This document shows, in pieces, positions 17,528 through 31,036 of a stretch of DNA of 64,000 nt; positions within the stretch are counted from its first letter, which is position 1; every line of letters begins with the position of its first letter. Source of the DNA: a virus (taxonomy: Duplodnaviria; Caudoviricetes); IMG/VR virus record IMGVR_UViG_2706795719_000001, positions 1-64,000 of that record. One strand, 5' to 3'. The translations under genes and the position numbers were made by a program. Under the pieces are notes generated by a model, which saw only the letters and a list, made by a program, of their open reading frames with translations, searched no databases and was not told the DNA's origin.

Positions 17528-17844
17528 CAGTGTCCCTTAAATATATCGAAAATACTGGTTTTAACTTTAGTGTTTTCAATTTGTGATTTAATACATTTTT
17601 CAATATGTGGTTCTATAATATTGTTTGGTAATTCAGAAAGAGTCGAATAATCATATTCTACTTTACCGTTTTTAATATCTATAGAATGGATGTATACTAA
17701 ATGAGGAGTGTTGTCAATTAAAATGACTATTTCTTGTATAACATCTTTCATTGATTCTTTGACAATATTTAACGACTTTTCATATATTTCTTGGTCATTC
17801 CCTATATTATCAAGAATCTTAAATTCTTCGTCAAAGTTTTGCAT
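17527..17844 (-). CDS. 40: head vertex assembly chaperone gp40 (start taken at ATG 17844)
   Basis: SL.IVKESM.DVIQEI..HLVY..PHIEKCI matches T4 gp40; synteny uvsX-40-41. Confidence 0.8.
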   Translation of the reverse strand: MQNFDEEFKILDNIGNDQEIYEKSLNIVKESMKDVIQEIVILIDNTPHLVYIHSIDIKNGKVEYDYSTLSELPNNIIEPHIEKCIKSQIENTKVKTSIFDIFKGH

Positions 17845-19210
17845 ATATATAATTTCCACAGTCCCAAATTCGCCGAAGTCCATTATTATAACAATTTTCG
17901 ACTTCAGTTAATTTAGGATTAAAATCTAAAAGTTTGTCTTTCAATTTATGTTTCATAAATGAAGACCTATGATAAAGCTTATCTTTTACAATATAATAAT
18001 AACACGGTTCAGATGTACCGATGTATTTTAATCCTAATTTATTATATACATTTCCTTGTGACCATCTTCTATTTGCATAAGAAATATATGTTAACCCTTT
18101 TAATAATTTAGAAGCACCTCCAACAACTGTATATCCAGCTTTAGAACATAATCTAAGTAATTCTAGATCATATTCTTTATTATATCTGGATTTACCAAGA
18201 ACAGCTACTTGGACAAGTTCATCATTATAGAATAACCCTTTATAAATTGAACCTGGACATTTACCTTGTAGGTGGTTTTCTTCTATGAAATTATTAGCAA
18301 TCTTTTTATCAATTTTTTTTAATGAACATTTTCTAGCGTATATTCTTTTAGATAACCCAAGTTTATTTTTAATAACAGATTTCCATATCTCTTTTTTAAT
18401 GGGGTCATTCCATTCATTCTCAAATATATGAAGAAGATTTATCCCTTTAGATTCACAGAGTTCCGTTTTATTGAGATGGTATCTATATAATCTTTTATCA
18501 TCTTCTTTAGAATTAGAAGAGTGCCAATATATCCCATTAAATTCAATAGCCAGAGAGTGTCCTGGGATATAGATATCTAGTTCATATGGTAATATAACCT
18601 GTTTGGTGTTTTGTTCACAGGACACACCTAGCGAACAAATATAATCATATACTTCTTGTTCTAATCCAGATTTACCAGACATTGATTTAATAGGATATCC
18701 ATGTTTTTCCATGAACTTAAATGCAGAAGAATGAGAGTTTAAAGATAACCCAAAATGCTTTGCAACGTCTTCCCAAGTTTTATTTGATAGATCTTCCATT
18801 ATATCTGGATTTTTTATGTCATCCAAATTCTTATAATTATATTGTAATGGATGTTCACCAAGTTGATATTTTTTTCCTCCCCATTTTCTTTCCGTTCCGT
18901 ATTTGTCCATACAAGTTCTTCTGGTTTTATTTTGGGTTTTTGCAGATTTAATAGAGCACTTATTAGAACAAACTTCTAATAATTTATTTCTGTATACAAT
19001 AACGGGTTTGCCACAATGACATTTAGGCACATCTTCTATTTTAGTAATACCGTTTTCAAGAAACACAATAACCTGGGGCAATGAAGCCCCAGGAAATGAT
19101 TTAATTATTTCTTGAAATAAAACAGTATTATGTTTTTCTAACCATTGTAAATTTCGTTTCGGGACTAATTTACCATTAGAATAACATAAAGTTTTTATTT
19201 CATTTATCAT
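17831..19210 (-). mobile_element. Hef-like (PD-(D/E)xK, Vsr-type) free-standing homing endonuclease
   Basis: ELDIYIP..LAIEFNGIYWH..LLHIFENEW core, N-terminal CxC..CS..C zinc motif; inserted between uvsX and 40. Confidence 0.75.
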
Positions 19211-19830
19211 AATTCTTCCATAGATTCCAATTCATCCATAGTAGAAGCAACAGAACTATCAGAGAAAACATGTTCTTCTACTTCAAGATTCATTAACTCT
19301 TCTACTTCTTGTTCTACTGATTCATCATTAACCATTTGTCCAAGTTTATATCGGTTTTCAATAGCTTCACGGAATGGAGCATGTTTCAATAAAGGTCCCC
19401 AGAAAGCAACACATCTTGTGTCTTTAGCTCGCCAATTCTTTTCTTCAGGAACCATTTCACCAGTTTCTTTATTTAAAAATGCTTGAGTATACCAACCGTT
19501 TTTAGGTTTAACAACAAATCCTAATTCTAGACCCATATCAAGTAATCCAGAATAAGGGTCAATACCACCATCAAATGTAACATCAATAAAGAATTTAGAT
19601 TTTTCTTTTACTGTACGAGATTTTTCGACATTTAATACAAATTGATAACCTTGTAAATCAGTACCATCTTTAATTTGTCTACGTCCAATAATATACACAT
19701 TATCAGCAGAATACATCACACCGGTATTATGTGTAACTACGCCGTTTTCTAATACATAGTGTTCTACATCTTTTACGGATAAATCGTATACTTCTTTTTT
19801 ACCTACGCGATTAATATTTTTAATTTTCAT
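19207..19830 (-). CDS. uvsX: UvsX C-terminal half preceded by a 35-aa C-intein (19830-19726)
   Basis: VYDLSV..HYVLENGVVTHN/T intein F and G blocks, then TGVMYSADNVYIIGRRQIKDG of UvsX. Confidence 0.93.
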   Translation of the reverse strand: MKIKNINRVGKKEVYDLSVKDVEHYVLENGVVTHNTGVMYSADNVYIIGRRQIKDGTDLQGYQFVLNVEKSRTVKEKSKFFIDVTFDGGIDPYSGLLDMGLELGFVVKPKNGWYTQAFLNKETGEMVPEEKNWRAKDTRCVAFWGPLLKHAPFREAIENRYKLGQMVNDESVEQEVEELMNLEVEEHVFSDSSVASTMDELESMEEL

Positions 19831-19844
19831 TACTTACCTTTATT

Positions 19845-20567
19845 CTATTGTGGTAATATGTCGTAAGACCATCCTTCACATCCACGTTTTATTTTAGAAA
19901 TGATTGTATTTGGGTTAATGTTTAATATCCTAGATGCAGGTCTTACACCTCTATACTTAACGCCATTAATTATAACCGGTTTTTGACGTGGGTGTGAATT
20001 TTTTAGTCTTTGTTTGGCCTTTTCCGATATTCTATTAATGGTTTCTTTACTATGAGTCTTTCCATAAAACCCATTATTTTCACCTGATACGCTTTTTGAT
20101 ATATTAGATTTATGGCAATTAGATAACTTTTTACCATATGTAACGCCAACGTATTCTCCTGATTTGACTAATGGGTGGTTACGTTCGAGTCTAATACATT
20201 TACCAGTTTTAATGTGTTTGTATGTTGCATATTTTGAATTACAATATGAATTATGGGAACACGCATAATCTAAATTAAAATATTCTGGGTTGGTTTTTGC
20301 CTTGACTTCTTTTTGATATTTAGATTCTATTTTTAATAATTCAGAATGCGTAATAGTCTCATATTTTTCTAATATAACAACTTCTACACTGTCATCAATA
20401 AAATCATAGTAATTTTTATATTTAGATGACCCATAGTATTCTTTACCATCAGAACAAATGATTTTGTTATTTACATAAGAAGCATTAGTTTTACTTCCTA
20501 TGTAATAATATGGCATTGTTTTATTTTTAATACGATTATTAAATATTACTTTATACACAAAATTCAT
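19845..20567 (-). mobile_element. free-standing GIY-YIG (Seg-like) homing endonuclease with NUMOD3-like DNA-binding motifs
   Basis: FVYKV...YYIGSK, YYGSS, E..YQ and YFN; GENNGFYGKTHSKET motif. Confidence 0.85.
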
Positions 20568-20608
20568 AGATACCTCGATTGTACATTACTCCGGTATCTA
20601 TATTTAAT
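20566..20608 (-). promoter_or_regulatory. RBS-occluding hairpin with an adjacent late-promoter-like element
   Basis: AUAGAUACC/GGUAUCUAU 9-bp stem covering part of the GAGG SD and the AUG; ATTAAATA at 20608-20601. Confidence 0.55.
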
Positions 20609-20610
20609 AC

Positions 20611-21534
20611 TTATTTTATCGCACAATCCATACCAACTAATAAATCTTTGGCTTCTACCCATGTTGGGATGTCTTTTACCATTACTAAGAATTTATGGGT
20701 ATCTGAAACAGTTACTTTATATCCATCTTCAAATTCGATTTCTATACATTCAGGGGTTCCTTCAGCTAAAGTTTCAGGGTCCCAAATATAAGTAACTTCA
20801 TTATCACCAACTAAAGTTTTAACTCTATCACCAGGTTTAATATCTTCTACATTTTTAGTAGAACCATCAGCCATTTTAATCTTAGTTCCAGCAACAACAC
20901 AACCACCGGTCATAACGGTTTTACTGAACATTTCAATTGTTTCAATGGTATGATTAATACCTACACACGGAATATCCTTTAAAGTAAAATATGGAGTAGC
21001 CATACGGAACAATGATTTTAACTGCTTAGCCCGTGTCATATCAGCGACAGATTTTTCATTTAAAGCATCTTCAACTTCTTTCTTAGAAGCTAAGTTACCA
21101 ATAGAGTCAATAAAGACTATAACTTTTTCACCACGTTCGATGGCTTCTAATTGATTAATCATATCAATTTTAAGTTCTTCTACGTTTTTAACTGGAGTAT
21201 GAACAACTCTGTCTGGGTCAACGCCCATAGAACGTAAATATGCACTTGTGATACCAAATTCTGAATCATAAAATAAACAAATTGCATCAGGATATGCATT
21301 CATATATGCTGCTACTAATGTAAGACCCATATTAGATTTAAAGTGTTTACTTGGACCGGCTAAAATAGTAATACCAGATTGAAGTCCACCATTAATAATA
21401 CCAGATAATGCAATATTCAAAGTAGGAATCTTAGTTCTAACAACCGATTTCTCATTGAAGAATTTAGATTCGCTAAGAACAGAAGTCATTTTATTAGTAG
21501 AAGCTTTCATTAAACGTTTTTTTAAGTCTGACAT
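20611..21534 (-). CDS. uvsX: UvsX N-terminal half (211 aa) followed by a 96-aa N-intein (Cys1 at 20901)
   Basis: GPSKHFKS P-loop and DSIGNLAS; ...SKTVMTGG/CVVAGTKIKMADG (block A), VTVSDTHKFL..WVEAKDL (block B). Confidence 0.93.
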   Translation of the reverse strand: MSDLKKRLMKASTNKMTSVLSESKFFNEKSVVRTKIPTLNIALSGIINGGLQSGITILAGPSKHFKSNMGLTLVAAYMNAYPDAICLFYDSEFGITSAYLRSMGVDPDRVVHTPVKNVEELKIDMINQLEAIERGEKVIVFIDSIGNLASKKEVEDALNEKSVADMTRAKQLKSLFRMATPYFTLKDIPCVGINHTIETIEMFSKTVMTGGCVVAGTKIKMADGSTKNVEDIKPGDRVKTLVGDNEVTYIWDPETLAEGTPECIEIEFEDGYKVTVSDTHKFLVMVKDIPTWVEAKDLLVGMDCAIK

Positions 21535-21583: not shown

Positions 21584-22498
21584 TTAGATTTCCCAAATAG
21601 GGCCTTTAACAATAATATCTTCATATGACGGTAATGCATAAATACATTGTACATTACATTTAAAATATATAAATTCTGCTAAACCCGGATGGAACACCTT
21701 TTCAGGATTTTCTTCATATATAATATTAGGTTTAGCTTTTAATGCATGGTAATATTCTGATTTATTTAATTTTAATAATTCACAGTCAGGATATTTTTCT
21801 TTATCCCAAGAATCATTAGGGTCTGTTATAATCAATTTAAGATTATATCTTTTGCATGAATTATATACATAATCGAAATCATAGCACTTGTCTGATATTC
21901 TAAATGGAAAAAATATTGTATTCTTCCAATCAAAGCCTATACAGGATTGTTGCATAAACTTCTCAGGAACACCAGGAGCAATTACTTCTTGTGTAACAAT
22001 GATTTTATCAGACAAAGCTCCATGAGACACTAGAACATCTTTCTGGCACTTATTAAGAACCGTTGTGTAAATACTTCTATTTACAGAATCAACATCTTCT
22101 TGAATAAATTCATCAATATATTCTCTTGGGTGTTTAGGGTCTTTTGTGATATTAAAATTGAAAAAGACCGGAAACGTTCCTTTATATCCTGTTATATCGC
22201 TTACTACAGCATCACAATTATAAAAATTAGCTAAAGAATCTACCATAAATGTATTGTATTCCCAGAATGTTTTTCTGGATTTATAAGCATTTTCTTGATA
22301 AACAGCTTCTTCAAAAATAATATCAGGAAAATATTCTTGTAATTCCTCTGAATCTTCACATTGTAAAGAATGTGGAATAACAATAACATCACCTTTTTGG
22401 TGCCGATTTAAATGTAATTGAAGATTTCCGTCTTTTAACAGGGAATATTTCCCTGTTTTATAAGACCTCATAGAATACATTGGTACAATGAGATTCAT
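21584..22498 (-). CDS. putative DNA glycosyltransferase (arabinosyltransferase-like)
   Basis: occupies the beta-gt position next to the TS homolog; Rossmann-like strands, IFFPFRISD and FHPGLAE motifs; function inferred from context. Confidence 0.55.
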   Translation of the reverse strand: MNLIVPMYSMRSYKTGKYSLLKDGNLQLHLNRHQKGDVIVIPHSLQCEDSEELQEYFPDIIFEEAVYQENAYKSRKTFWEYNTFMVDSLANFYNCDAVVSDITGYKGTFPVFFNFNITKDPKHPREYIDEFIQEDVDSVNRSIYTTVLNKCQKDVLVSHGALSDKIIVTQEVIAPGVPEKFMQQSCIGFDWKNTIFFPFRISDKCYDFDYVYNSCKRYNLKLIITDPNDSWDKEKYPDCELLKLNKSEYYHALKAKPNIIYEENPEKVFHPGLAEFIYFKCNVQCIYALPSYEDIIVKGPIWEI

Positions 22499-22506
22499 AA
22501 TAATCC

Positions 22507-23196
22507 TTATAGAAAAGATTCTACATATTTTATATCACGTTCAAATACATGTGCAGAAACCATAGAATGTGTGTAATGACCTAAAGAAACACCACATTCT
22601 TTTGCAATGTATTCCATTAATTTACCTTGTAAATAAATATCAAGTTGTAATACTACTGCACAATTCTGTGAACGCATATGGGTGTGAGTATATAATTTAC
22701 CATTACGAATATAATATGTTATAGAATCTGTACAAGGGTATTCTAATGATTCATCTGAATCTAATAAAGCCTGGTCTTGTTCTTGAAGAATTTGGAATAC
22801 CACTCTTCGAGAGTTAGGTTTTTCTTTAAGTTCTTTAAGCAAGGCAGGTAATTGGGCCAAAATTCTAGGTCCATAAAAAGTATTGAAGTTTGCTGGCAAT
22901 ACGTCACTTTTTGGTTTACTAATAAATTTAGCTACATTTGGATATTCTTTAAATGCTTCTTCTGCATCAGTTCCACCAGAAATCATAAATTGCCAAAAAT
23001 CTTCAGCGTATTTGTAATCAATACGGTTTATTAAAAGGTCTTCAAATTTATATGTAGAAGGGTCCATTACTCGAAAACAAAGTGAGCCAATTTCTCGACA
23101 TTCGCCAATTCTAGACTCAGTAATAAAGTCATATTCAGAAATGACTAAATCGTTAACAACCTTAAAAGCTTCTTCAAATGTTTGTTTAACAATCAT
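22507..23196 (-). CDS. thymidylate-synthase-family dCMP-modifying enzyme (gp42 position)
   Basis: YGPRI, NSRR, catalytic YPC, MRSQN...LD (Asp at the dCMP-specificity site) and SAHVFE. Confidence 0.85.
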   Translation of the reverse strand: MIVKQTFEEAFKVVNDLVISEYDFITESRIGECREIGSLCFRVMDPSTYKFEDLLINRIDYKYAEDFWQFMISGGTDAEEAFKEYPNVAKFISKPKSDVLPANFNTFYGPRILAQLPALLKELKEKPNSRRVVFQILQEQDQALLDSDESLEYPCTDSITYYIRNGKLYTHTHMRSQNCAVVLQLDIYLQGKLMEYIAKECGVSLGHYTHSMVSAHVFERDIKYVESFL

Positions 23197-23579
23197 AAAA
23201 GTCCTTGTAATTTTTTAGAATATTGCATTAAAAATATAATTAATGGCTGTGCTTCTGGAGGAGTATTTAATAATTTCTTTTCTTCTACTTGTCCATTATA
23301 TATCGGTAAATGATTAGCTTTTTTGGTTTGTCCAATTTTAATTGCTAATTTATTCCGTTTATTAAAAAGATCAATCATTTGTTTATCTATTTCTTCGATA
23401 GATTTTCTATCTTTTTCTAAAGATTCTTTATCATTCAGATCTTTAATCCAGTCTTTAGCCATTGAAGAAGAAATATTTTTAATTAATTCTTTAGGAATTG
23501 GCGGAATATCAATTCCAGGATAATCCTTATTTAAGAATATTTTTGGTGTTCTTGGTGGCCAAAATGATTCACATTTCAT
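23193..23579 (-). CDS. AroQ (type II) chorismate mutase domain protein
   Basis: LEKDRKSIEEIDKQMIDLFNKRNKLAIKIGQTKKANHLPIYNGQVEE...YSKKLQ keeps the spacing of E. coli CM R11, R28, K39, E52 and the S84/Q88 pair; GAGG SD before ATG 23579. Confidence 0.78.
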   Translation of the reverse strand: MKCESFWPPRTPKIFLNKDYPGIDIPPIPKELIKNISSSMAKDWIKDLNDKESLEKDRKSIEEIDKQMIDLFNKRNKLAIKIGQTKKANHLPIYNGQVEEKKLLNTPPEAQPLIIFLMQYSKKLQGLL

Positions 23580-23635
23580 GAGAAACCTCAATTTTTATAA
23601 GAATAAAGTAATATCATCATTAAATTTAATTAGCA

Positions 23636-23815
23636 TTATTTACCTAATATTTTACCGGAAGGGCCATCATACAAAGAGGCTTTTATAATAAAACCTTTTA
23701 GATCGTGGTTGTATTTTTTGAATTTAGTTATTTCACTCATAAACATAATAGATGAAACAATTTCGCCATGGGTCATAATAGCAGGCACAAGCCTGCTCAA
23801 TAAAGTTTTCTTCAT
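23636..23815 (-). CDS. small hypothetical protein in the modification cluster
   Basis: 59-aa ORF from ATG 23815 with GGAG SD. Confidence 0.5.
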   Translation of the reverse strand: MKKTLLSRLVPAIMTHGEIVSSIMFMSEITKFKKYNHDLKGFIIKASLYDGPSGKILGK

Positions 23816-23816
23816 A

Positions 23817-24983
23817 TCAATTCTCCGGATATCTTTCTTCATCATCGGCACCGTCTAAAACCTTGATTTCTATTTCATCAGGTTTACGATCATTTTTAGA
23901 TAATTGTCGTTTATAATACCGTTCACAATATTTACATGTCGTACCACAGATTTCATTAGCACAATCAAAATCAGGATGTTTAAACCAACGTTTATTTAAA
24001 AATCCATCTAATAAAGAAGTTTCTAAATATACTTGGTGTTGATGGTCTAATTCTGATTGACCATTATAAATTGTTTCTAATGGTTTCCAGAGCTCTAATA
24101 AATTACCTTCAAACTTTTCTGATGCATAAGCTTCTAGAACTTTAACAATATATTCTGTTGTTCCAGTACGGCCCGATACTTTAAACTGAGAAATACCAAT
24201 AGAACGGTATAGCTCAAGATCTTGTGGACGAATAAATCTTGTACGAAGCCAATTAAATGGGTCAGTATCACGAGCTTTAATACAGTGTTGCATTGGATAT
24301 CCACCTAAAGATTGAGCATCTTCTGCTGTTATATCTGTACTATGAAAAATATAACATGAATCACGGTAAGAGCAATGAGTTGTATATCCTTTACCTGCAT
24401 TTGAACAGAATTCGTTTACAAGCAATTCAAATATGATTCCATTCTTATTGCAAAACTCTGCGGCTCGTTTTAAAAACGAAACACTTCGGTTTTTATGAAT
24501 ACCACAACAAACTTTCTTAATATTATATTGGTCATGAAGATATTTGATTTGTGTTACGGCATCAACATGAAGAATAGTAGAAACTTCAAATTGAATTTCT
24601 TTATTAACTTCACGAATAATTTCCATAATAATTGGATTAGCAACCGTTACACGATAAACACCTATACTCCATAGATATTGAACATAATCTTGGATGGCTT
24701 TCTTTTTCCATTCCTGTAACTCTCTTTTAGAGCCAGGGTTAATAGTGTTCAGTGTGTAATTGAAACATATTCCTAAGTCATTGCAACGTTGTACGTATGT
24801 TTCTAGTTGTTCATTTTTTACATCAGGTAATCTAAAATCAGGTCTGGCCGCAGCAAAAGCCATATCTCGTGTGCTACCATACACTTCATTAATAATACTA
24901 TTAGGGTATTTCTTGTTTAATTCAACAATTTTATCAAGAAGAGTTAAATCAAAATTAGTCCCAACTTTAAATGTATTTTTCAT
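23817..24983 (-). CDS. peptidase U32-family Fe-S hydroxylase
   Basis: FNYTLN, EVSTI, ELLVNEFC..C..C..C, FIRPQDL and FKVSGR motifs. Confidence 0.88.
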   Translation of the reverse strand: MKNTFKVGTNFDLTLLDKIVELNKKYPNSIINEVYGSTRDMAFAAARPDFRLPDVKNEQLETYVQRCNDLGICFNYTLNTINPGSKRELQEWKKKAIQDYVQYLWSIGVYRVTVANPIIMEIIREVNKEIQFEVSTILHVDAVTQIKYLHDQYNIKKVCCGIHKNRSVSFLKRAAEFCNKNGIIFELLVNEFCSNAGKGYTTHCSYRDSCYIFHSTDITAEDAQSLGGYPMQHCIKARDTDPFNWLRTRFIRPQDLELYRSIGISQFKVSGRTGTTEYIVKVLEAYASEKFEGNLLELWKPLETIYNGQSELDHQHQVYLETSLLDGFLNKRWFKHPDFDCANEICGTTCKYCERYYKRQLSKNDRKPDEIEIKVLDGADDEERYPEN

Positions 24984-26218: not shown

Positions 26219-27820
26219 CTAGTTTACTAAATCATGCAAAATCCATTTTTCAGGGCATTTGGTAATAATAGAAAGTGTAACACCATTTTTTAATTCAGGA
26301 ACCTGTTCACCTGATTTTAAAGTTCTTGATTTAGGAATATCTTTTAATAAAAGGGAAAGTTTGTATAAGCCGTTATAATATGCACCCAAAGCTTTTAAAG
26401 GGTTATTTTTAAAATATCCGGCTAAAGCCATCCAAATAACAGCAATCCATAATTTGTGTTTAAATGTACACATAGGAATGTCATCTAAAGGCATAATTGG
26501 TTTAACATCAACAAATACTTTCTTTCCAACAAGACACAATCCACCCCATAGTGGGTCGGAATTAAATTCGTCATATCCGTCAATAGAATATAAAACTTTG
26601 GCTTCGTCGTAAATAGCCGGACCTTTTACAGAATTTCCGAAATATCCACGTGGGTCAATTATTTTAATATCACCTTTATCACTAAACAAAATATTGCTAT
26701 AATGTGGATCACCATGGATAAATTGATATGGTTCTTTTTTATCAGATAAAATTTCCAATGCATGTTTTAGTAATTCTTCAGGGTCTGAAACTTTAACATC
26801 ATTGACATGAGTTACACCATTTGGTGCAAATCCTTTAATTAAAGGTGCAATAGATTCGTTTCTAATTAAAACTTTATCAAGAACTTCTTTTTTAACATCA
26901 GAATACCAGGTTTCATCTTCAGGGATAATTGGGTCACCACTAATAGATTTTAATGCAGATATAACTTTATATACCATAAGAATTTGGCTTTCTTTAGTCA
27001 TTAACTTATAGGCTTCAGCCATTGTTAAGCCGTAAATACGTTCCATTTTAATAAATTCATTAGGCTTAAAATCAAAAATAGTAGGAATGAATTTAGAATC
27101 TACATTAGAGTACCAATTCATTTCTTTTTGTTGCATTTGTTTGCCAAATTCGTTGGTTGGGATTTTGAATACAACTTCACCATCGAATTCTAATTTATTA
27201 AAGTCCCGGTTTATTTCTGATTCTTCATGGGCTTTAGCTAATTTTTCTTTATCACCGATATCAATAACCTTAGGTAATTTAAATTCTTCCATTTTAAATG
27301 GCATATTATTGATATTATCAGCTAAATCTTCTCCATAAGGCCCTTTAAATCCTTCCCAATTTTTAATTTGATACATTCCTACTACGCCACCACCTGTACC
27401 AACTTCATTAAATTTATTATCGACAAATTCAAATCGGCAATCGGTTCCAAATGTGTAGCAATAATTATGACCCCAATCAACAATATGATTTTCTGGGATA
27501 ATATCACACCAGTTAAAAACTATATTATGGCCAATAATATCGTCTTTAATAGAATCTATAGCATGGGCACTTCCAAAAGAAACATCCACATTTCTAATAG
27601 TAATATCTGGAAGACCCATTGTTTTAATATAACCTTTAACAAGGGTGTTATATTTGCTATGGATAACTAAGATAATCTCATCCGATTGAGGTGAATATAA
27701 ATCAACCAGGTGTTTTAAGACCGTATGTTGTTTATAGTTAACCATAACTTTAGGAATTTCGCTTGTTATAGGATATAAACGCGAACCTAAACCCGAACTT
27801 AATATGACAACTTTCTTCAT
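26219..27820 (-). CDS. bifunctional NTP-sugar nucleotidyltransferase / APH-choline-kinase-like sugar kinase
   Basis: VVILSSGLGSRLYP..PK N-terminal motif; IHGDPHYSNIL..IIDPRGYFG C-terminal kinase motifs. Confidence 0.85.
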   Translation of the reverse strand: MKKVVILSSGLGSRLYPITSEIPKVMVNYKQHTVLKHLVDLYSPQSDEIILVIHSKYNTLVKGYIKTMGLPDITIRNVDVSFGSAHAIDSIKDDIIGHNIVFNWCDIIPENHIVDWGHNYCYTFGTDCRFEFVDNKFNEVGTGGGVVGMYQIKNWEGFKGPYGEDLADNINNMPFKMEEFKLPKVIDIGDKEKLAKAHEESEINRDFNKLEFDGEVVFKIPTNEFGKQMQQKEMNWYSNVDSKFIPTIFDFKPNEFIKMERIYGLTMAEAYKLMTKESQILMVYKVISALKSISGDPIIPEDETWYSDVKKEVLDKVLIRNESIAPLIKGFAPNGVTHVNDVKVSDPEELLKHALEILSDKKEPYQFIHGDPHYSNILFSDKGDIKIIDPRGYFGNSVKGPAIYDEAKVLYSIDGYDEFNSDPLWGGLCLVGKKVFVDVKPIMPLDDIPMCTFKHKLWIAVIWMALAGYFKNNPLKALGAYYNGLYKLSLLLKDIPKSRTLKSGEQVPELKNGVTLSIITKCPEKWILHDLVN

Positions 27821-28269
27821 TTATTTTTCTCGCAAATTTTCTTTAATGTAGGAACATCGTATTTAACAACCTGAGAATAATCACCTGTTAAACTAGCATT
27901 TTGTTGCATAACACGGTATGTGATAACAGCTCGTTGATAACAATTGAGCTCAACTTTTTTAGGTTGTTCCATTGGAGGAAGATTTCTATCTTTAGCTAAT
28001 TGAGCGTCAACACGGGCTGAAGCTTCAGCAATTTCTGCACGAACACGTAATCTGTCTGCTTCTCTTTTGGCATCAAGTTGACGTTCTAATTCAGCTCTAG
28101 ATTGATATTGTGGATTTTTATTAAAATAAGCGATTCCATTAGATGTTGATGCTAACTGCCCAGATTGTTGCATTCTAGCTTCACGTTTAGCTTTATAAGC
28201 TTCGTATTCAGCTTGGCTCATACATCCGGTCATAGTTAAACAAATAAGTCCGATTAAAATATGTTTCAT
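27817..28269 (-). CDS. predicted lipoprotein
   Basis: MKHILIGLICLTMTG-C lipobox; GAGGAG SD. Confidence 0.65.
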   Translation of the reverse strand: MKHILIGLICLTMTGCMSQAEYEAYKAKREARMQQSGQLASTSNGIAYFNKNPQYQSRAELERQLDAKREADRLRVRAEIAEASARVDAQLAKDRNLPPMEQPKKVELNCYQRAVITYRVMQQNASLTGDYSQVVKYDVPTLKKICEKNK

Positions 28270-28297
28270 AATATGTCTCCTCAATAAATTTAATCGG

Positions 28298-28328
28298 AAC
28301 TATATCACTTATTTTATAGAAGCATTAA
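28298..28328 (-). promoter_or_regulatory. MotA-dependent middle promoter upstream of the modification cluster
   Basis: TAATGCTTCT MotA-box-like element followed 13 nt later by TATAGT. Confidence 0.6.
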
Positions 28329-31036
28329 AAATCAAATAAATCAGCTAAAGAAGATTTTTTCTCATAATCAATTTTAGCGGCATTTGTAAATGATGATAAT
28401 GGTTTAACAAATGTTTTGTTAAAAAGTTCTTGGTAATCAAGATTACGTTTAACAAGCTCTTCTATTTCTTGTGGTAAATCTGAGCCAGAAGGCCAAGAGA
28501 TACATTTTTCACCAAATGGATTTCCTTCTTTTAATGGAAGAACTTTAACTTTCTCACCTTCAAAAATAGGTGGTGCACCATCTAAATTTTTAGTCGAACG
28601 ATTATAAGCTAAAACGCCTTTAACATGGTATGGACATCCTTTAGTTGGGAATCCTTCTGCGTCAGAATACTTCATAAGATTATTAGCACTTGATACTGAA
28701 GCTATTGAGCTATAATCGTTTTCTCGGAATTGTTTTTCAAATTCTTTATAATATTCTTGTAATGATTCTTCACCTTCTTGCAACATACGTCGAATACACT
28801 CTTTTAGTGCAACTTGGCAACTTTTTGGTGTACTAGATTTTTGTGTTTCTAGACCCATGATTTTTAATTCTGGGGTTTCGTATCTGGTACCTTCCATATC
28901 CCAGACATTTAATGCATATCGTTTCTTAGCAGTCCAGAATCCACCTAATCCTTTAGTTCCTAATGGAGGACCAGCAATAGCTTCTCGGTCCATAAACATC
29001 AAATGTTCTCTGTTGTTCATGTATTCTTTTAATTCACGATAAGCTGTGTCAATAGCGGGTTCCATTTTTTCTGATGCAAACTTAGATAAGAAATCTACTA
29101 ATTTTTGAGTATCGTTATTAAATTTATGTTCAACTTTATCTACTAAATTATCTAAACAAACATAAACTGAGTCTGTATCACCTGCGATAACATAAGAATA
29201 GTTTTCGGTTCCTAATGTTGTATTTAAATATTCGTTAATTTTGCGTTCAATCCACTGGATTGCAAGTTGTCCAAATAATGTAATGGCCGAAGCATTTCTT
29301 AAATCATAATATCTGAAGTAAATATTACCTAATGCACCATAACAAGAGTTAATCAATAATTTTCTGTTAATTTGGGCTGTATTAGATGTTACAATAACCC
29401 ACTCACAGTATTCTAATAATTTCTCTAAAGATTCTTTAGAAGCAGTATTTAATAAAGCTTTAAAGTCTTCATTAAAATCAAATCTTCCGTCAACTTCAGG
29501 TAAATCATTAGTCCCATAAGAACCTTTATGTAATGCGGCTTTAACAAGTTCTGCATTACGTTTAGCAGCTAACATATATCCTTTATGTTCTTTACGTTGT
29601 AAGAACACTTTTTCTACTTCTTCAGGAATAACACCTTGATATGATTTATCATACATCCAACCATTAGGAGAACATGAATAAACATCTGATGGTCTTGGCG
29701 CGGTCTTATTAATATAGTCAGCCATAGGTGCAACAGGAAAACTTCCTACTATTGTCTCTGGACTTATATTAGCTTGTCTAATAATACTCGGATATAGGCT
29801 TGTAAGGTCAAAACTTAATACCCATCGGTATGCATTAGGAACAGGTTCTTTAACATAAGCACCTGGATATCCTTGTCTTAAATGTTGTTTTAATTCAGGA
29901 ATAACTTTCTTTTTAACTTTAAGTGAATTAAAAATAATAGCGTCCCACGTTTTAATAGGGCTAAATACTGATTGAATTTGCATTTTTGAATAATATCCAA
30001 GAGATAATGCTAATTCAATAAATTGACGTTTCTTATCAATTTCTTGCACACAATTCACATCTTCAATATTATAACTAATATATCTATTGTGATTTGCCAT
30101 TCTTAATTTATTAAGAGCACCTTTATATTTTAGTTTACCTTTACCTGTTTCAAATTCCGCGATAAAGTCTAAATTATATGTAGGTTGGTTTGTAAAACTG
30201 AATTTCTTGTAAAGATCTAAATAATCAAGGACTGAAACACCCATGATATCGAAAATTTGTTTATCGCCATAAATATTTTGAATGACTTTAGAACGAATCT
30301 TTCGACATGGAGACATTCTTTTTGCAACTCGTTCACCTAAAACGTTTGTAATTCTATTAACAATATACGGGATATCAAATCCTTCAACGTTCCATCCTGT
30401 AAAAATAACAGGTGGTTTTTCTTCCCATAAACGAACATATTCTAATAATAGTTCTTCTTCTGTTTCGAAAGGAAGATAAACGACTTTATCAATAATTTCT
30501 TGAGATAATTCGTCACCACCTTGATTTTCCGGTAAAGCAGCTAATTTTGCATCCCATTTAGAGACACTACCAAAAGCAGAATTTAATAAGTCAAATACAT
30601 AAAACTTATCATCAATAGAATCGTAATGGGTAATAGCATCTATTTCATATAAAGCCAGTTCTGGTTTAGGAAAATCAGTACCAGTAACCTCAATGTCGCA
30701 GTTTGCAATACGAATGTATTTTCTATTATACATAACGTCATAAGCATAATTATCACTAATATAGGCCAATTTAAAGTCATCCATACCCATGACTTCTTGA
30801 CCTACATCTTTCATTCGCTTAGACCAATCACGTGCATCTTGGATAGAACTAAATTTTTTACGTGTACAATACTTTCCATAGATATCTTTGTATTTTGTTT
30901 CTGTTCCTTCTACAGAATGCCAAAATAAAGATGGTTCATATTGCACAGTTCGTTGGCGTTCTTTTCCATCTGAATCGATATACCTTTCAAAAATGTTATT
31001 ACCAATTTGTTCTACATTTAAATAAAATGGTTTCAT
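28325..31036 (-). CDS. 43: family B DNA polymerase gp43
   Basis: CDIEV exonuclease, SFDLTSLYPSII, KLLINSCYG and GDTDS motifs; 903 aa, unsplit. Confidence 0.98.
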   Translation of the reverse strand: MKPFYLNVEQIGNNIFERYIDSDGKERQRTVQYEPSLFWHSVEGTETKYKDIYGKYCTRKKFSSIQDARDWSKRMKDVGQEVMGMDDFKLAYISDNYAYDVMYNRKYIRIANCDIEVTGTDFPKPELALYEIDAITHYDSIDDKFYVFDLLNSAFGSVSKWDAKLAALPENQGGDELSQEIIDKVVYLPFETEEELLLEYVRLWEEKPPVIFTGWNVEGFDIPYIVNRITNVLGERVAKRMSPCRKIRSKVIQNIYGDKQIFDIMGVSVLDYLDLYKKFSFTNQPTYNLDFIAEFETGKGKLKYKGALNKLRMANHNRYISYNIEDVNCVQEIDKKRQFIELALSLGYYSKMQIQSVFSPIKTWDAIIFNSLKVKKKVIPELKQHLRQGYPGAYVKEPVPNAYRWVLSFDLTSLYPSIIRQANISPETIVGSFPVAPMADYINKTAPRPSDVYSCSPNGWMYDKSYQGVIPEEVEKVFLQRKEHKGYMLAAKRNAELVKAALHKGSYGTNDLPEVDGRFDFNEDFKALLNTASKESLEKLLEYCEWVIVTSNTAQINRKLLINSCYGALGNIYFRYYDLRNASAITLFGQLAIQWIERKINEYLNTTLGTENYSYVIAGDTDSVYVCLDNLVDKVEHKFNNDTQKLVDFLSKFASEKMEPAIDTAYRELKEYMNNREHLMFMDREAIAGPPLGTKGLGGFWTAKKRYALNVWDMEGTRYETPELKIMGLETQKSSTPKSCQVALKECIRRMLQEGEESLQEYYKEFEKQFRENDYSSIASVSSANNLMKYSDAEGFPTKGCPYHVKGVLAYNRSTKNLDGAPPIFEGEKVKVLPLKEGNPFGEKCISWPSGSDLPQEIEELVKRNLDYQELFNKTFVKPLSSFTNAAKIDYEKKSSLADLFDF

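Follow-up and report, generated by a model that had tools for sequence, protein, structure and literature searches.

The bacteriophage RB69 and the Acinetobacter phage DLP3 replace the cytosine of their DNA with arabosylated 5-hydroxycytosine (5hoC), and the first step of this pathway, the formation of 5-hydroxy-dCMP, is carried out by a homolog of thymidylate synthase (TS; gp48 in RB69, gp80 in DLP3) that binds flavin and incorporates 18O from 18O2 into its product (Lee et al., NAR 2026, PMC13326640). In the same study, gp48 together with a deoxynucleoside monophosphate (dNMP) kinase was sufficient for the appearance of 5-hydroxydeoxycytidine (5hodC) in E. coli, a diagnostic residue signature was defined for the TS-type synthases, the role of gp46:47 as first arabinosyltransferase was put forward as a prediction, and a crystal structure and in vitro proof of O2 as the oxygen source were credited to He et al. 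2026 (Nat Chem Biol). A protein of the Peptidase_U32 family (hereafter U32), RB69p050, appears there as a table entry only, labelled 'sugar or heterocycle reductase'; DLP3 makes tri-arabinosyl-5hoC without any U32, and the published pathway defines no role for such a protein nor mentions chorismate, prephenate, peptidase, RlhA or DAHP (3-deoxy-D-arabinoheptulosonate 7-phosphate) synthase (PMC13326640). The discussion of that paper does recall that other pathways for the hydroxylation of tRNA pyrimidines exist, and leaves them unconnected to a phage gene. Here we analyse the corresponding locus in positions 1 to 64,000 of the IMG/VR virus record IMGVR_UViG_2706795719_000001, a stretch of 64,000 nucleotides called the window throughout, which belongs to a 162-kb T4-like phage genome. 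In this locus, a U32 gene and the gene of a TS homolog flank a gene for an AroQ-type chorismate mutase. Our reading, which is tentative and held at slightly less than even confidence as regards the full mechanism, is that U32 and the mutase may provide an O2-independent, prephenate-driven backup route to 5-hydroxycytosine.

The described U32 proteins supply the chemical precedent. RlhA hydroxylates C5 of a cytosine in 23S rRNA (ho5C2501), TrhP serves the formation of 5-hydroxyuridine in tRNA (ho5U34), and UbiU-UbiV serve anaerobic ubiquinone synthesis; prephenate is the established oxygen donor for UbiU/V and is needed by RlhA and TrhP (PMC10990095). In addition, two of these systems pair an O2-dependent with a U32/prephenate enzyme for one and the same product, namely TrhO/TrhP for ho5U in tRNA and UbiI-H-F/UbiU-V for ubiquinone (PMC6599085, PMC6747719). 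The pair proposed here would obey the same logic, and would differ from both precedents in being viral, in acting on a DNA precursor and in having its own prephenate-making enzymes. For the phage U32, the prephenate link is written into the gene order.

The prephenate side of this proposal begins with a small gene. An original prediction, made from the letters of this DNA, had described an open reading frame (ORF) of 128 amino acids (aa) between the U32 and TS genes, overlapping the start of the latter, and the ORF coordinates bear this out: it runs on the minus strand from an ATG at 23579, with a GAGG Shine-Dalgarno sequence 6 nt upstream, to a TGA stop at 23193 that shares the letters ATGA with the start of the TS homolog. 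A TTG start at 23591, present in the ORF list, is probably spurious, and a further ORF of 59 aa, overlooked in the prediction, also lies between U32 and the mutase. The assignment of the C-terminal 75 residues or so to AroQ held up in a hidden Markov model search against Pfam CM_2 (E 3.7e-12, 46.7 bits, cut-off 27), the match spanning profile positions 2-47 of 80 only and recurring unchanged in a six-frame search of the genome. Fifteen NCBIfam chorismate-mutase models also match, every one below its equivalog cut-off. In a sequence search of the PDB, residues 58-97 align with residues 11-50 of the E. coli enzyme (EcCM, PDB 1ECM) and residues 54-126 with the P. furiosus mutase 1ybz (E 1.3e-5). 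The AlphaFold2 (AF2) model has helices at residues 30-88, 96-105 and 108-127, with pLDDT 86-95 in the domain, and reproduces the three-helix fold of these two enzymes; in a Foldseek comparison with the PDB, 22 of the 25 top rows are chorismate mutases, led by 1ybz (TMt 0.90, rmsd 1.0 Å, 36% identity) and followed by 5j6f, with E-values that are weak (4e-3 or higher) because the domain is small. Residues ~53-128 form this catalytic domain, whereas residues 1-50 are a low-confidence, lineage-specific N-terminal extension by which the window protein differs from EcCM and 1YBZ.

The EcCM and 1ybz alignments place the catalytic residues in the register that had been predicted: R58, R75, K86 and E99 correspond to R11 (R11' of the enzyme), R28, K39 and E52 of EcCM, and S121 and Q125 hold the spacing of S84 and Q88, past a loop between the second and third helices that EcCM has longer by about ten residues. 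None of the six catalytic equivalents varies in 11 of 11 phage homologs. D48 and R51 of the DxxRE motif are both replaced in the window mutase, by N95 and V98, just as the prediction had it, and this sets the protein apart from EcCM and 1YBZ; among the 11 phage homologs the asparagine is invariant and the R51 position holds V, I or L throughout. This variant is not a phage-specific decay, since it is frequent among the nearest AroQ sequences. Specifically, a profile search of 1.8 billion representative proteins returned 9174 relatives, and among the best 150, a sample biased to the query profile, 43 have neither Asp48 nor Arg51, nearly all of them with Asn plus Val, Ile or Leu. R11, R28 and K39 are kept in 150 of 150, and the six catalytic residues are conserved in this set as well. 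The residue at the Asp48 position touches the ligand via its backbone, and Asp stands there in just 57% of AroQ sequences (PMC12329711). Taken on the match, the fold and the conservation of residues across AroQ, chorismate mutase activity of the 128-aa protein is rated as quite likely. Unlike mutases of the EcCM type, it is unfused to a prephenate dehydratase or dehydrogenase, and its genomic partner is U32 rather than genes for phenylalanine or tyrosine.

The association of the mutase with U32 extends well beyond this genome. A tblastn survey of 50,697 phage records, from which the record counts for U32, TS, AfhE and the mutase are taken, finds U32 in 220 records, with identities that never fall below 81%, with Escherichia (137), Klebsiella (26), Shigella (14), Serratia (7), Yersinia (6) and Proteus (5) as the main genera and Acinetobacter outside the ten most frequent genera, the tenth of which counts three records. 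The mutase is found in about 60 records from at least 13 host genera and, among the matches listed, always adjoins U32 or the neighbouring TS gene; its versions in Providencia, Pectobacterium, Klebsiella, Edwardsiella, Enterobacter, Yersinia and Shewanella phages match Pfam CM_2 above threshold. The order U32, mutase, TS is conserved in Straboviridae. In Thanatos-2, a Shewanella phage, U32 and the mutase are two genes off the TS gene and still form a pair. When IMG/VR was scanned with the mutase profile, U32 was directly upstream in 10 of the 10 loci recovered; scanned with the U32 profile, it gave 49 loci, 23 of which have a mutase within ~1.6 kb of U32. The expectation that the mutase would co-occur with U32 in other phages is thereby borne out. 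Moreover, the linkage arose independently in three architectures: Straboviridae have a short form downstream of U32, jumbo-phage contigs have a full-length mutase (Pfam 55 bits) that stands alone downstream of U32, and jumbo-phage relatives have, upstream or downstream of U32, a fusion of DAHP synthase and mutase (Pfam DAHP_synth_1 plus CM_2). This last form resembles the AroA(G)-type DAHP synthase-mutase of Bacillus and Geobacillus (PDB 5J6F), from which the window phage differs in having two separate genes ~105 kb apart and a DAHP synthase of the AroG/F/H I-alpha type.

RB69-type phages keep U32 and, according to a Pfam scan of the ORF after U32, have no mutase there. In these Mosigviruses (~160 records) the place of the mutase is taken by ORF049c. 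The 79-aa ORF049c of RB69 was considered as a diverged mutase and rejected: it has no Pfam match, its hhalign comparison with the mutase profile gives prob 0.2%, and its homologs coexist with the mutase in Yersinia and Pectobacterium phages. The ORF049c family (57-79 aa, PHROG 8601, unknown function, motif Y-x-DAF-x-HS...HIN) always directly follows U32, in ~163 phage records and with or without a mutase, whereas the window has a different ORF, of 59 aa, at this place. The family, which is unrelated to AroQ, may represent a partner of U32.

The U32 protein itself matches Pfam Peptidase_U32 with 42.7 bits (cut-off 22.4), and its AF2 model (pLDDT 92.8) finds the U32 protein Mk0906 (5d88, TMt 0.67) as best fold match in the PDB; a sequence search of the solved structures returned no match, which leaves this fold match only. 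With RlhA, TrhP and UbiU-UbiV it shares the U32 Pfam domain, the TIM-barrel fold and, as far as two of the four canonical positions go, a conserved cluster of cysteines. Among the four E. coli U32 proteins compared by hhalign, the phage profile is closest to RlhA, the 5-hydroxycytidine synthase of 23S rRNA (prob 86%, E 4.8e-6, 203 columns), compared with prob 13% for TrhP and 5% for UbiU; in other words, the nearest relative by profile is one that also hydroxylates C5 of cytosine. Judged by these comparisons, the phage proteins are a distinct virus-borne clade, orthologous to no characterised member (RlhA, TrhP, UbiU or UbiV). About 280 homologs are known, most of them unnamed metagenomic proteins of ~360 aa that are 50-58% identical. 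Nine cysteines (C159, C193, C204, C210, C234, C341, C346, C350 and C353) are invariant in 60 of 60 homologs, with C193, C204, C210 and C234 spaced as CX10CX5CX23C. The [4Fe-4S] motif of the family is CX6CX15CX3/4C or, in UbiU, CX6CX16CX38C (PMC6747719); C204 and C210 of the phage protein align with the CX6C of RlhA, and the CX3C pair of RlhA faces non-cysteine residues. An iron-sulphur (Fe-S) cluster is therefore probable and its ligands are uncertain, because only the CX6C half of the motif aligns.

Further features distinguish the phage U32 from RlhA, TrhP and UbiU-UbiV, namely that two of the four canonical cysteines align, that it carries an extra C-terminal cysteine motif, that it is encoded by viruses and that it lies inside a DNA-modification operon. 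It is a single protein of 388 aa without the C-terminal domains that RlhA (653 aa) and TrhP (453 aa) have, which suggests a different, perhaps small, substrate. The extra motif, Cx4Cx3Cx2C (C341, C346, C350 and C353), falls in the last 50 residues, is present in 60 of 60 homologs and has no counterpart in RlhA, TrhP and UbiU; a second metal or Fe-S site may be bound there. As for its evolution, the amino-acid identity of U32 stays at 81% or more throughout the 220 records, compared with ~36% as the lower end for the mutase, ~42% for AfhE, the sugar kinase/nucleotidyltransferase of the cluster, and ~72% for TS, which points to very strong constraint or recent horizontal spread.

In all lineages seen, U32 sits inside a DNA-modification cluster. 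In viral genomes outside Straboviridae, it stands beside a clear homolog (E 1e-21) of the 304-aa transferase of the window, with genes of AfhE-like, HAD-like and thymidylate-kinase-like (Tmk-like) type nearby. A TS-family search of ten such records, five of them 90-100% complete, found a TS-family gene of any kind in one, and this gene has the canonical ThyA residues (LAPC, RSGD, FN). Since glycosylation by a transferase of the 5hoC type calls for a hydroxyl acceptor and neither a TS-type hydroxylase nor a hydroxymethylase is at hand, U32 is the obvious candidate there, and we infer from these gene contents that it may be the hydroxylase of the jumbo phages without TS.

The supply of prephenate appears to have been provided for at a second point. 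Far from the modification cluster (~105 kb), the genome of the window phage carries a DAHP synthase gene of the AroG/F/H type (Pfam 237 bits), and genome searches found no chorismate synthase, prephenate dehydratase, prephenate dehydrogenase or CmoA in its 162 kb. With DAHP synthase and the mutase present and no downstream enzyme, the phage supplies exactly the two feedback-controlled steps, and prephenate is its last product. The prediction that phage-made prephenate bypasses the feedback regulation of the host fits this gene content, with a DAHP synthase present and neither chorismate synthase nor any prephenate-using enzyme. Two other uses of these genes were considered and discarded: a route from prephenate through CmoA to Cx-SAM (carboxy-S-adenosylmethionine), as in carboxymethylcytosine phages, fails for want of a CmoA in the genome, and a complete phage shikimate or Phe/Tyr pathway fails for want of chorismate synthase, prephenate dehydratase and prephenate dehydrogenase.

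DAHP synthase is found in 211 phage records, with a distribution over genera nearly that of U32. In a spot check of single phages, U32 and DAHP synthase were sought by family searches of whole records, and the mutase by a Pfam scan of the ORF beside U32, with a whole-genome search for the window phage only. The window phage and Klebsiella phage F48 have all three genes, Shewanella phage Thanatos-2 has U32 and mutase and no DAHP synthase, and RB69 has U32 alone; Acinetobacter phage KARL-1 and the E. coli Dhakavirus JS10 have neither U32 nor DAHP synthase, and their modification clusters show no mutase, the whole records not having been searched for it. The hosts fit an O2-free route loosely: U32 is carried by phages of facultative anaerobes, and 57 records of phages of Acinetobacter, a strict aerobe, have TS and AfhE with essentially no U32. 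A strict rule dividing aerobic from anaerobic hosts was rejected, as it fails with the E. coli Dhakaviruses, which are without U32.

The TS homolog of the window belongs with the published O2-dependent enzymes. Its identity to RB69 gp48 is 76%, and the EYPC and HMRSQN...QLD stretches are the same in both; it matches PDB 9iqu/9iqc with E 2e-115, and has the signature residues ThyA L143E, D169N and N177D, the E. coli numbering being mapped through the identity with gp48. Homologs occur in 352 phage records, 57 of them from Acinetobacter, and in ~130 records TS is found without U32. Because RB69 gp48 alone makes 5-hydroxy-dCMP and DLP3 makes its modified base with no U32, U32 and the mutase can be at most a parallel or conditional route. 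On the same published grounds, the part of the original prediction that made U32 the synthase of 5-hydroxy-dCMP on a genome scale had to be given up.

The mechanism that we propose would operate as follows. The 128-aa mutase would turn host chorismate into prephenate, the distal DAHP synthase probably boosting the supply of chorismate, and prephenate would serve as the oxygen-donating co-substrate of the adjacent U32 Fe-S enzyme rather than as a precursor of amino acids. U32 would then add, without O2, a hydroxyl group to C5 of cytosine, with dCMP as the most likely substrate and DNA as a possible one, after which Tmk-like and dNMP kinases and the polymerase would incorporate the hydroxylated nucleotide and the transferases would glycosylate it. 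Straboviridae would in this way have two parallel routes to 5hoC, the flavin/O2-dependent TS type when growth is oxic and U32 with prephenate in the anoxic gut, the habitat of a host that is facultatively anaerobic. Gene identities, the conservation of catalytic residues and gene linkage are shown by the sequences; from these we infer the activity of the mutase, the use of prephenate by U32, its substrate and its independence of O2. With a little less confidence than in the backup route, and equally tentatively, we suggest that the phage U32 may be the first enzyme to hydroxylate a DNA precursor without O2, turning dCMP into 5-hydroxy-dCMP or else C into 5hoC in DNA, its prephenate secured by phage DAHP synthase and mutase, acting as a backup to the TS type in enteric T4-like phages and as the only hydroxylase in jumbo phages of anoxic habitats.

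Several observations weigh against this proposal. On the side of the enzyme, U32 matches no NCBIfam equivalog, the best model being UbiU with E 0.002 and 17 bits against a cut-off of 440 bits; the third and fourth canonical Fe-S cysteines (CX15CX3/4C) are unaligned in the phage family; and in vitro hydroxylation has so far been shown for no U32 protein (PMC10990095). On the side of the mutase, the R51 equivalent is absent. On the side of gene distribution, RB69 has U32 with neither mutase nor DAHP synthase, and no mutase was found in three complete U32-bearing viral genomes, so that the mutase is an accessory to U32 and never the reverse. The Dhakaviruses, such as JS10, share E. coli as host and its habitat and do without U32 and DAHP synthase, with no mutase in the cluster. 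Finally, U32 is dispensable at least in air, as TS alone is sufficient under O2 and DLP3 is fully modified without U32.

The same evidence bears on other explanations of the locus. The U32 enzyme might be prephenate-dependent and fed by the mutase and yet act on RNA, modifying U34 of tRNA or C2501 of rRNA, of host or phage, and so tune translation during infection. All characterised nucleic-acid U32 enzymes do act on RNA, RlhA is the closest E. coli profile match, and RB69 virion DNA contains no base beyond arabinosyl-5hoC that would call for a second enzyme (PMC13326640). We nevertheless consider this unlikely, given that U32 sits in the DNA-modification operon in every lineage, including the jumbo phages where it abuts genes like that of the 304-aa transferase and AfhE, that it has a cysteine-rich tail in place of the C-terminal domains of RlhA and TrhP, and that the host is already equipped with RlhA, TrhP and TrhO. 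If, instead, the substrate lay in the sugar branch, or if U32 modified the glycan further, in either case with the AroQ protein as a non-catalytic or moonlighting partner, the label given to RB69p050 by Lee et al. (PMC13326640) would be apt, as would the name of putative UDP-arabinose biosynthesis enzyme in one BASEL phage record. This is quite improbable, however, for the sugar pathway and the transferases are complete, and U32 is missing, in DLP3, other Acinetobacter phages and Dhakaviruses, and a mere scaffold would not need the strictly conserved catalytic residues of AroQ.

Among auxiliary metabolic genes, those for feedback-insensitive pathway enzymes are common, and the mutase and the distal DAHP synthase could accordingly be ordinary genes of this kind, providing aromatic amino acids for phage protein synthesis, with the proximity to U32 incidental. 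The ~105 kb between DAHP synthase and the cluster would agree with this; yet three independent architectures have the phage mutase beside U32, the only place where it is found, neither prephenate dehydratase nor prephenate dehydrogenase is encoded by the phage, and from genus to genus DAHP synthase comes and goes with U32, which makes such a role rather improbable. There is, lastly, the version of the original prediction, in which U32 is the main and obligatory 5-hydroxy-dCMP synthase, the TS homolog activates C5, and the two form one three-gene machine with the mutase. It is prompted by the translational coupling of mutase and TS through ATGA and by the conserved gene order in Straboviridae. 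It is also very improbable, being largely refuted by published heterologous expression, in which RB69 gp48 and a dNMP kinase sufficed for 5hodC in E. coli, with 18O2 incorporated and flavin bound (PMC13326640). Moreover, U32 occurs without a TS-type hydroxylase in jumbo phages and TS without U32 in ~130 records, and the U32-mutase pair of Thanatos lies apart from the TS gene; an obligatory module of TS, mutase and U32 also cannot be squared with the RB69-type phages, which keep U32 without a mutase.

The setting of the genes is that of a known modification locus (Table 1). The window is 98.1% identical, over the region examined, to Proteus phage PM2 of the genus Bragavirus, and the modification genes fill the interval from DNA polymerase to uvsX, all on the minus strand. 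It shares this interval with the RB69, DLP3 and HY126 (Afh) clusters, together with a TS-type synthase and genes like AfhE, AfhF, Tmk and gp46:47, so that the sugar-activating, phosphatase, DNA glycosyltransferase and nucleotide kinase genes of the arabinosyl-5hoC cluster are present (gene roles from PMC13326640). AfhE-like homologs occur in 368 phage records, 57 of them from Acinetobacter, and homologs of the 304-aa protein, 52-87% identical, hold the equivalent position in related phages. Unlike RB69, DLP3 and phiP4-3, the window phage has no SIS-type arabinose-5-phosphate isomerase, and a genome-wide search found no SIS domain in its 162 kb; the phage may rely on host KdsD or GutQ, or attach a different sugar. 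The window AfhE is 72% identical to the Dhakavirus/Marfavirus type and only 42% to that of RB69, which also means that the sugar may differ.

Table 1. Positions of the genes discussed, in window coordinates (nt) unless another source is named
Feature	Position	Strand	Assignment and remarks
DNA polymerase gene	28325-31036	-	
155-aa ORF	27817-28284	-	lipoprotein-like signal (LTMTGC); between AfhE and DNA polymerase genes, roughly at the T4 imm position; no significant match in family searches
Bifunctional sugar kinase/nucleotidyltransferase (AfhE-like), 533 aa	26219-27820	-	Pfam NTP_transferase + APH
HAD-like sugar phosphatase (AfhF-like), 117 aa	25785-26138	-	NCBIfam capsule biosynthesis phosphatase, E 1.2e-9; counterpart RB69 gp51 / HY126 AfhF
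Thymidylate-kinase-like nucleotide kinase, 186 aa	25228-25788	-	weak Pfam Thymidylate_kin match and P-loop; counterpart RB69p045 'nucleotide kinase'
67-aa ORF		-	between the 186-aa kinase and U32 genes
U32-family protein, 388 aa	23817-24983	-	Pfam Peptidase_U32; probable Fe-S enzyme, candidate prephenate-dependent hydroxylase; the last 50 residues (23817-23965) hold the C-terminal cysteine motif
59-aa ORF	23636-23815	-	PHROG 38618 (unknown function), E 6e-41; no Pfam match; ATG 2 nt past the U32 stop
AroQ-type chorismate mutase, 128 aa	23193-23579	-	Pfam CM_2
TS homolog, 229 aa	22507-23196	-	5-hydroxy-dCMP synthase type (flavin/O2); Pfam 53.9 bits
304-aa protein	21584-22498	-	PHROG 3891; family and position of RB69 gp46:47 (predicted first DNA arabinosyltransferase)
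uvsX, split in two ORFs	19207-21534	-	
uvsX, N-terminal RecA part	20611-21534	-	ends with a Hint module
NUMOD3 homing-endonuclease ORF, free-standing	19845-20567		separates the uvsX halves
uvsX, C-terminal part	19207-19830	-	intein splicing motif, then T4 UvsX C-domain
459-aa ORF	17831-19210	-	overlaps the end of the uvsX C-terminal part
DAHP synthase (AroG/F/H type)	G000:C1:128745-129581	-	same genome, outside the window
Homing endonuclease gene of PM2	L075:2807-3490		between U32 and chorismate mutase; absent from the window (23580-23816)
ORF049c family members	RB69 L001:6155-6394; homologs L015:4771-4998, L016:4831-5001, L018:4727-4960		PHROG 8601

Mobile elements have left their traces in and around the locus. 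PM2 carries a homing endonuclease gene within the U32-mutase module, which is a presence/absence polymorphism between PM2 and the window phage. The uvsX gene is split in two ORFs by an intein that is interrupted by, or split around, a homing endonuclease gene. The adjoining 459-aa ORF has sub-threshold matches to the Mom family (23 bits) and to the REase_MTES_1575 nuclease domain, and may be another mobile endonuclease or a modification-related gene.

The original prediction had supposed the module to be undescribed, and this stands in one respect and not in the other. Neither full-text searches nor targeted word searches in related phage papers, a coverage that does not extend to He et al. 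2026 and Mahler et al. 2025 (Cell Host Microbe), found the hydroxylation of phage DNA connected in print with U32, prephenate or chorismate mutase. The gene names, by contrast, are already public, as RefSeq lists a 'chorismate mutase' and a 'peptidase' for PM2 and several other records do likewise, while PHROGs enters the mutase families as unknown function.

The published route to 5hoC needs O2, and the phages in question infect Enterobacterales of the gut that often grow without it. If the proposal is true, a route independent of O2 would account for the upkeep, in the gut, of the DNA coat that counters restriction and CRISPR, and it would bear on phage therapy with phages of the RB69, Klebsiella and Proteus types. 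For the U32 family, it would extend prephenate-dependent chemistry from RNA and quinones to DNA precursors, and would make available for in vitro assay a soluble enzyme of small size and one subunit that takes a nucleotide as its substrate. Finally, the widespread DAHP synthase of these phages would have to be seen as a gene for the supply of a cofactor rather than as an auxiliary gene for amino acids.

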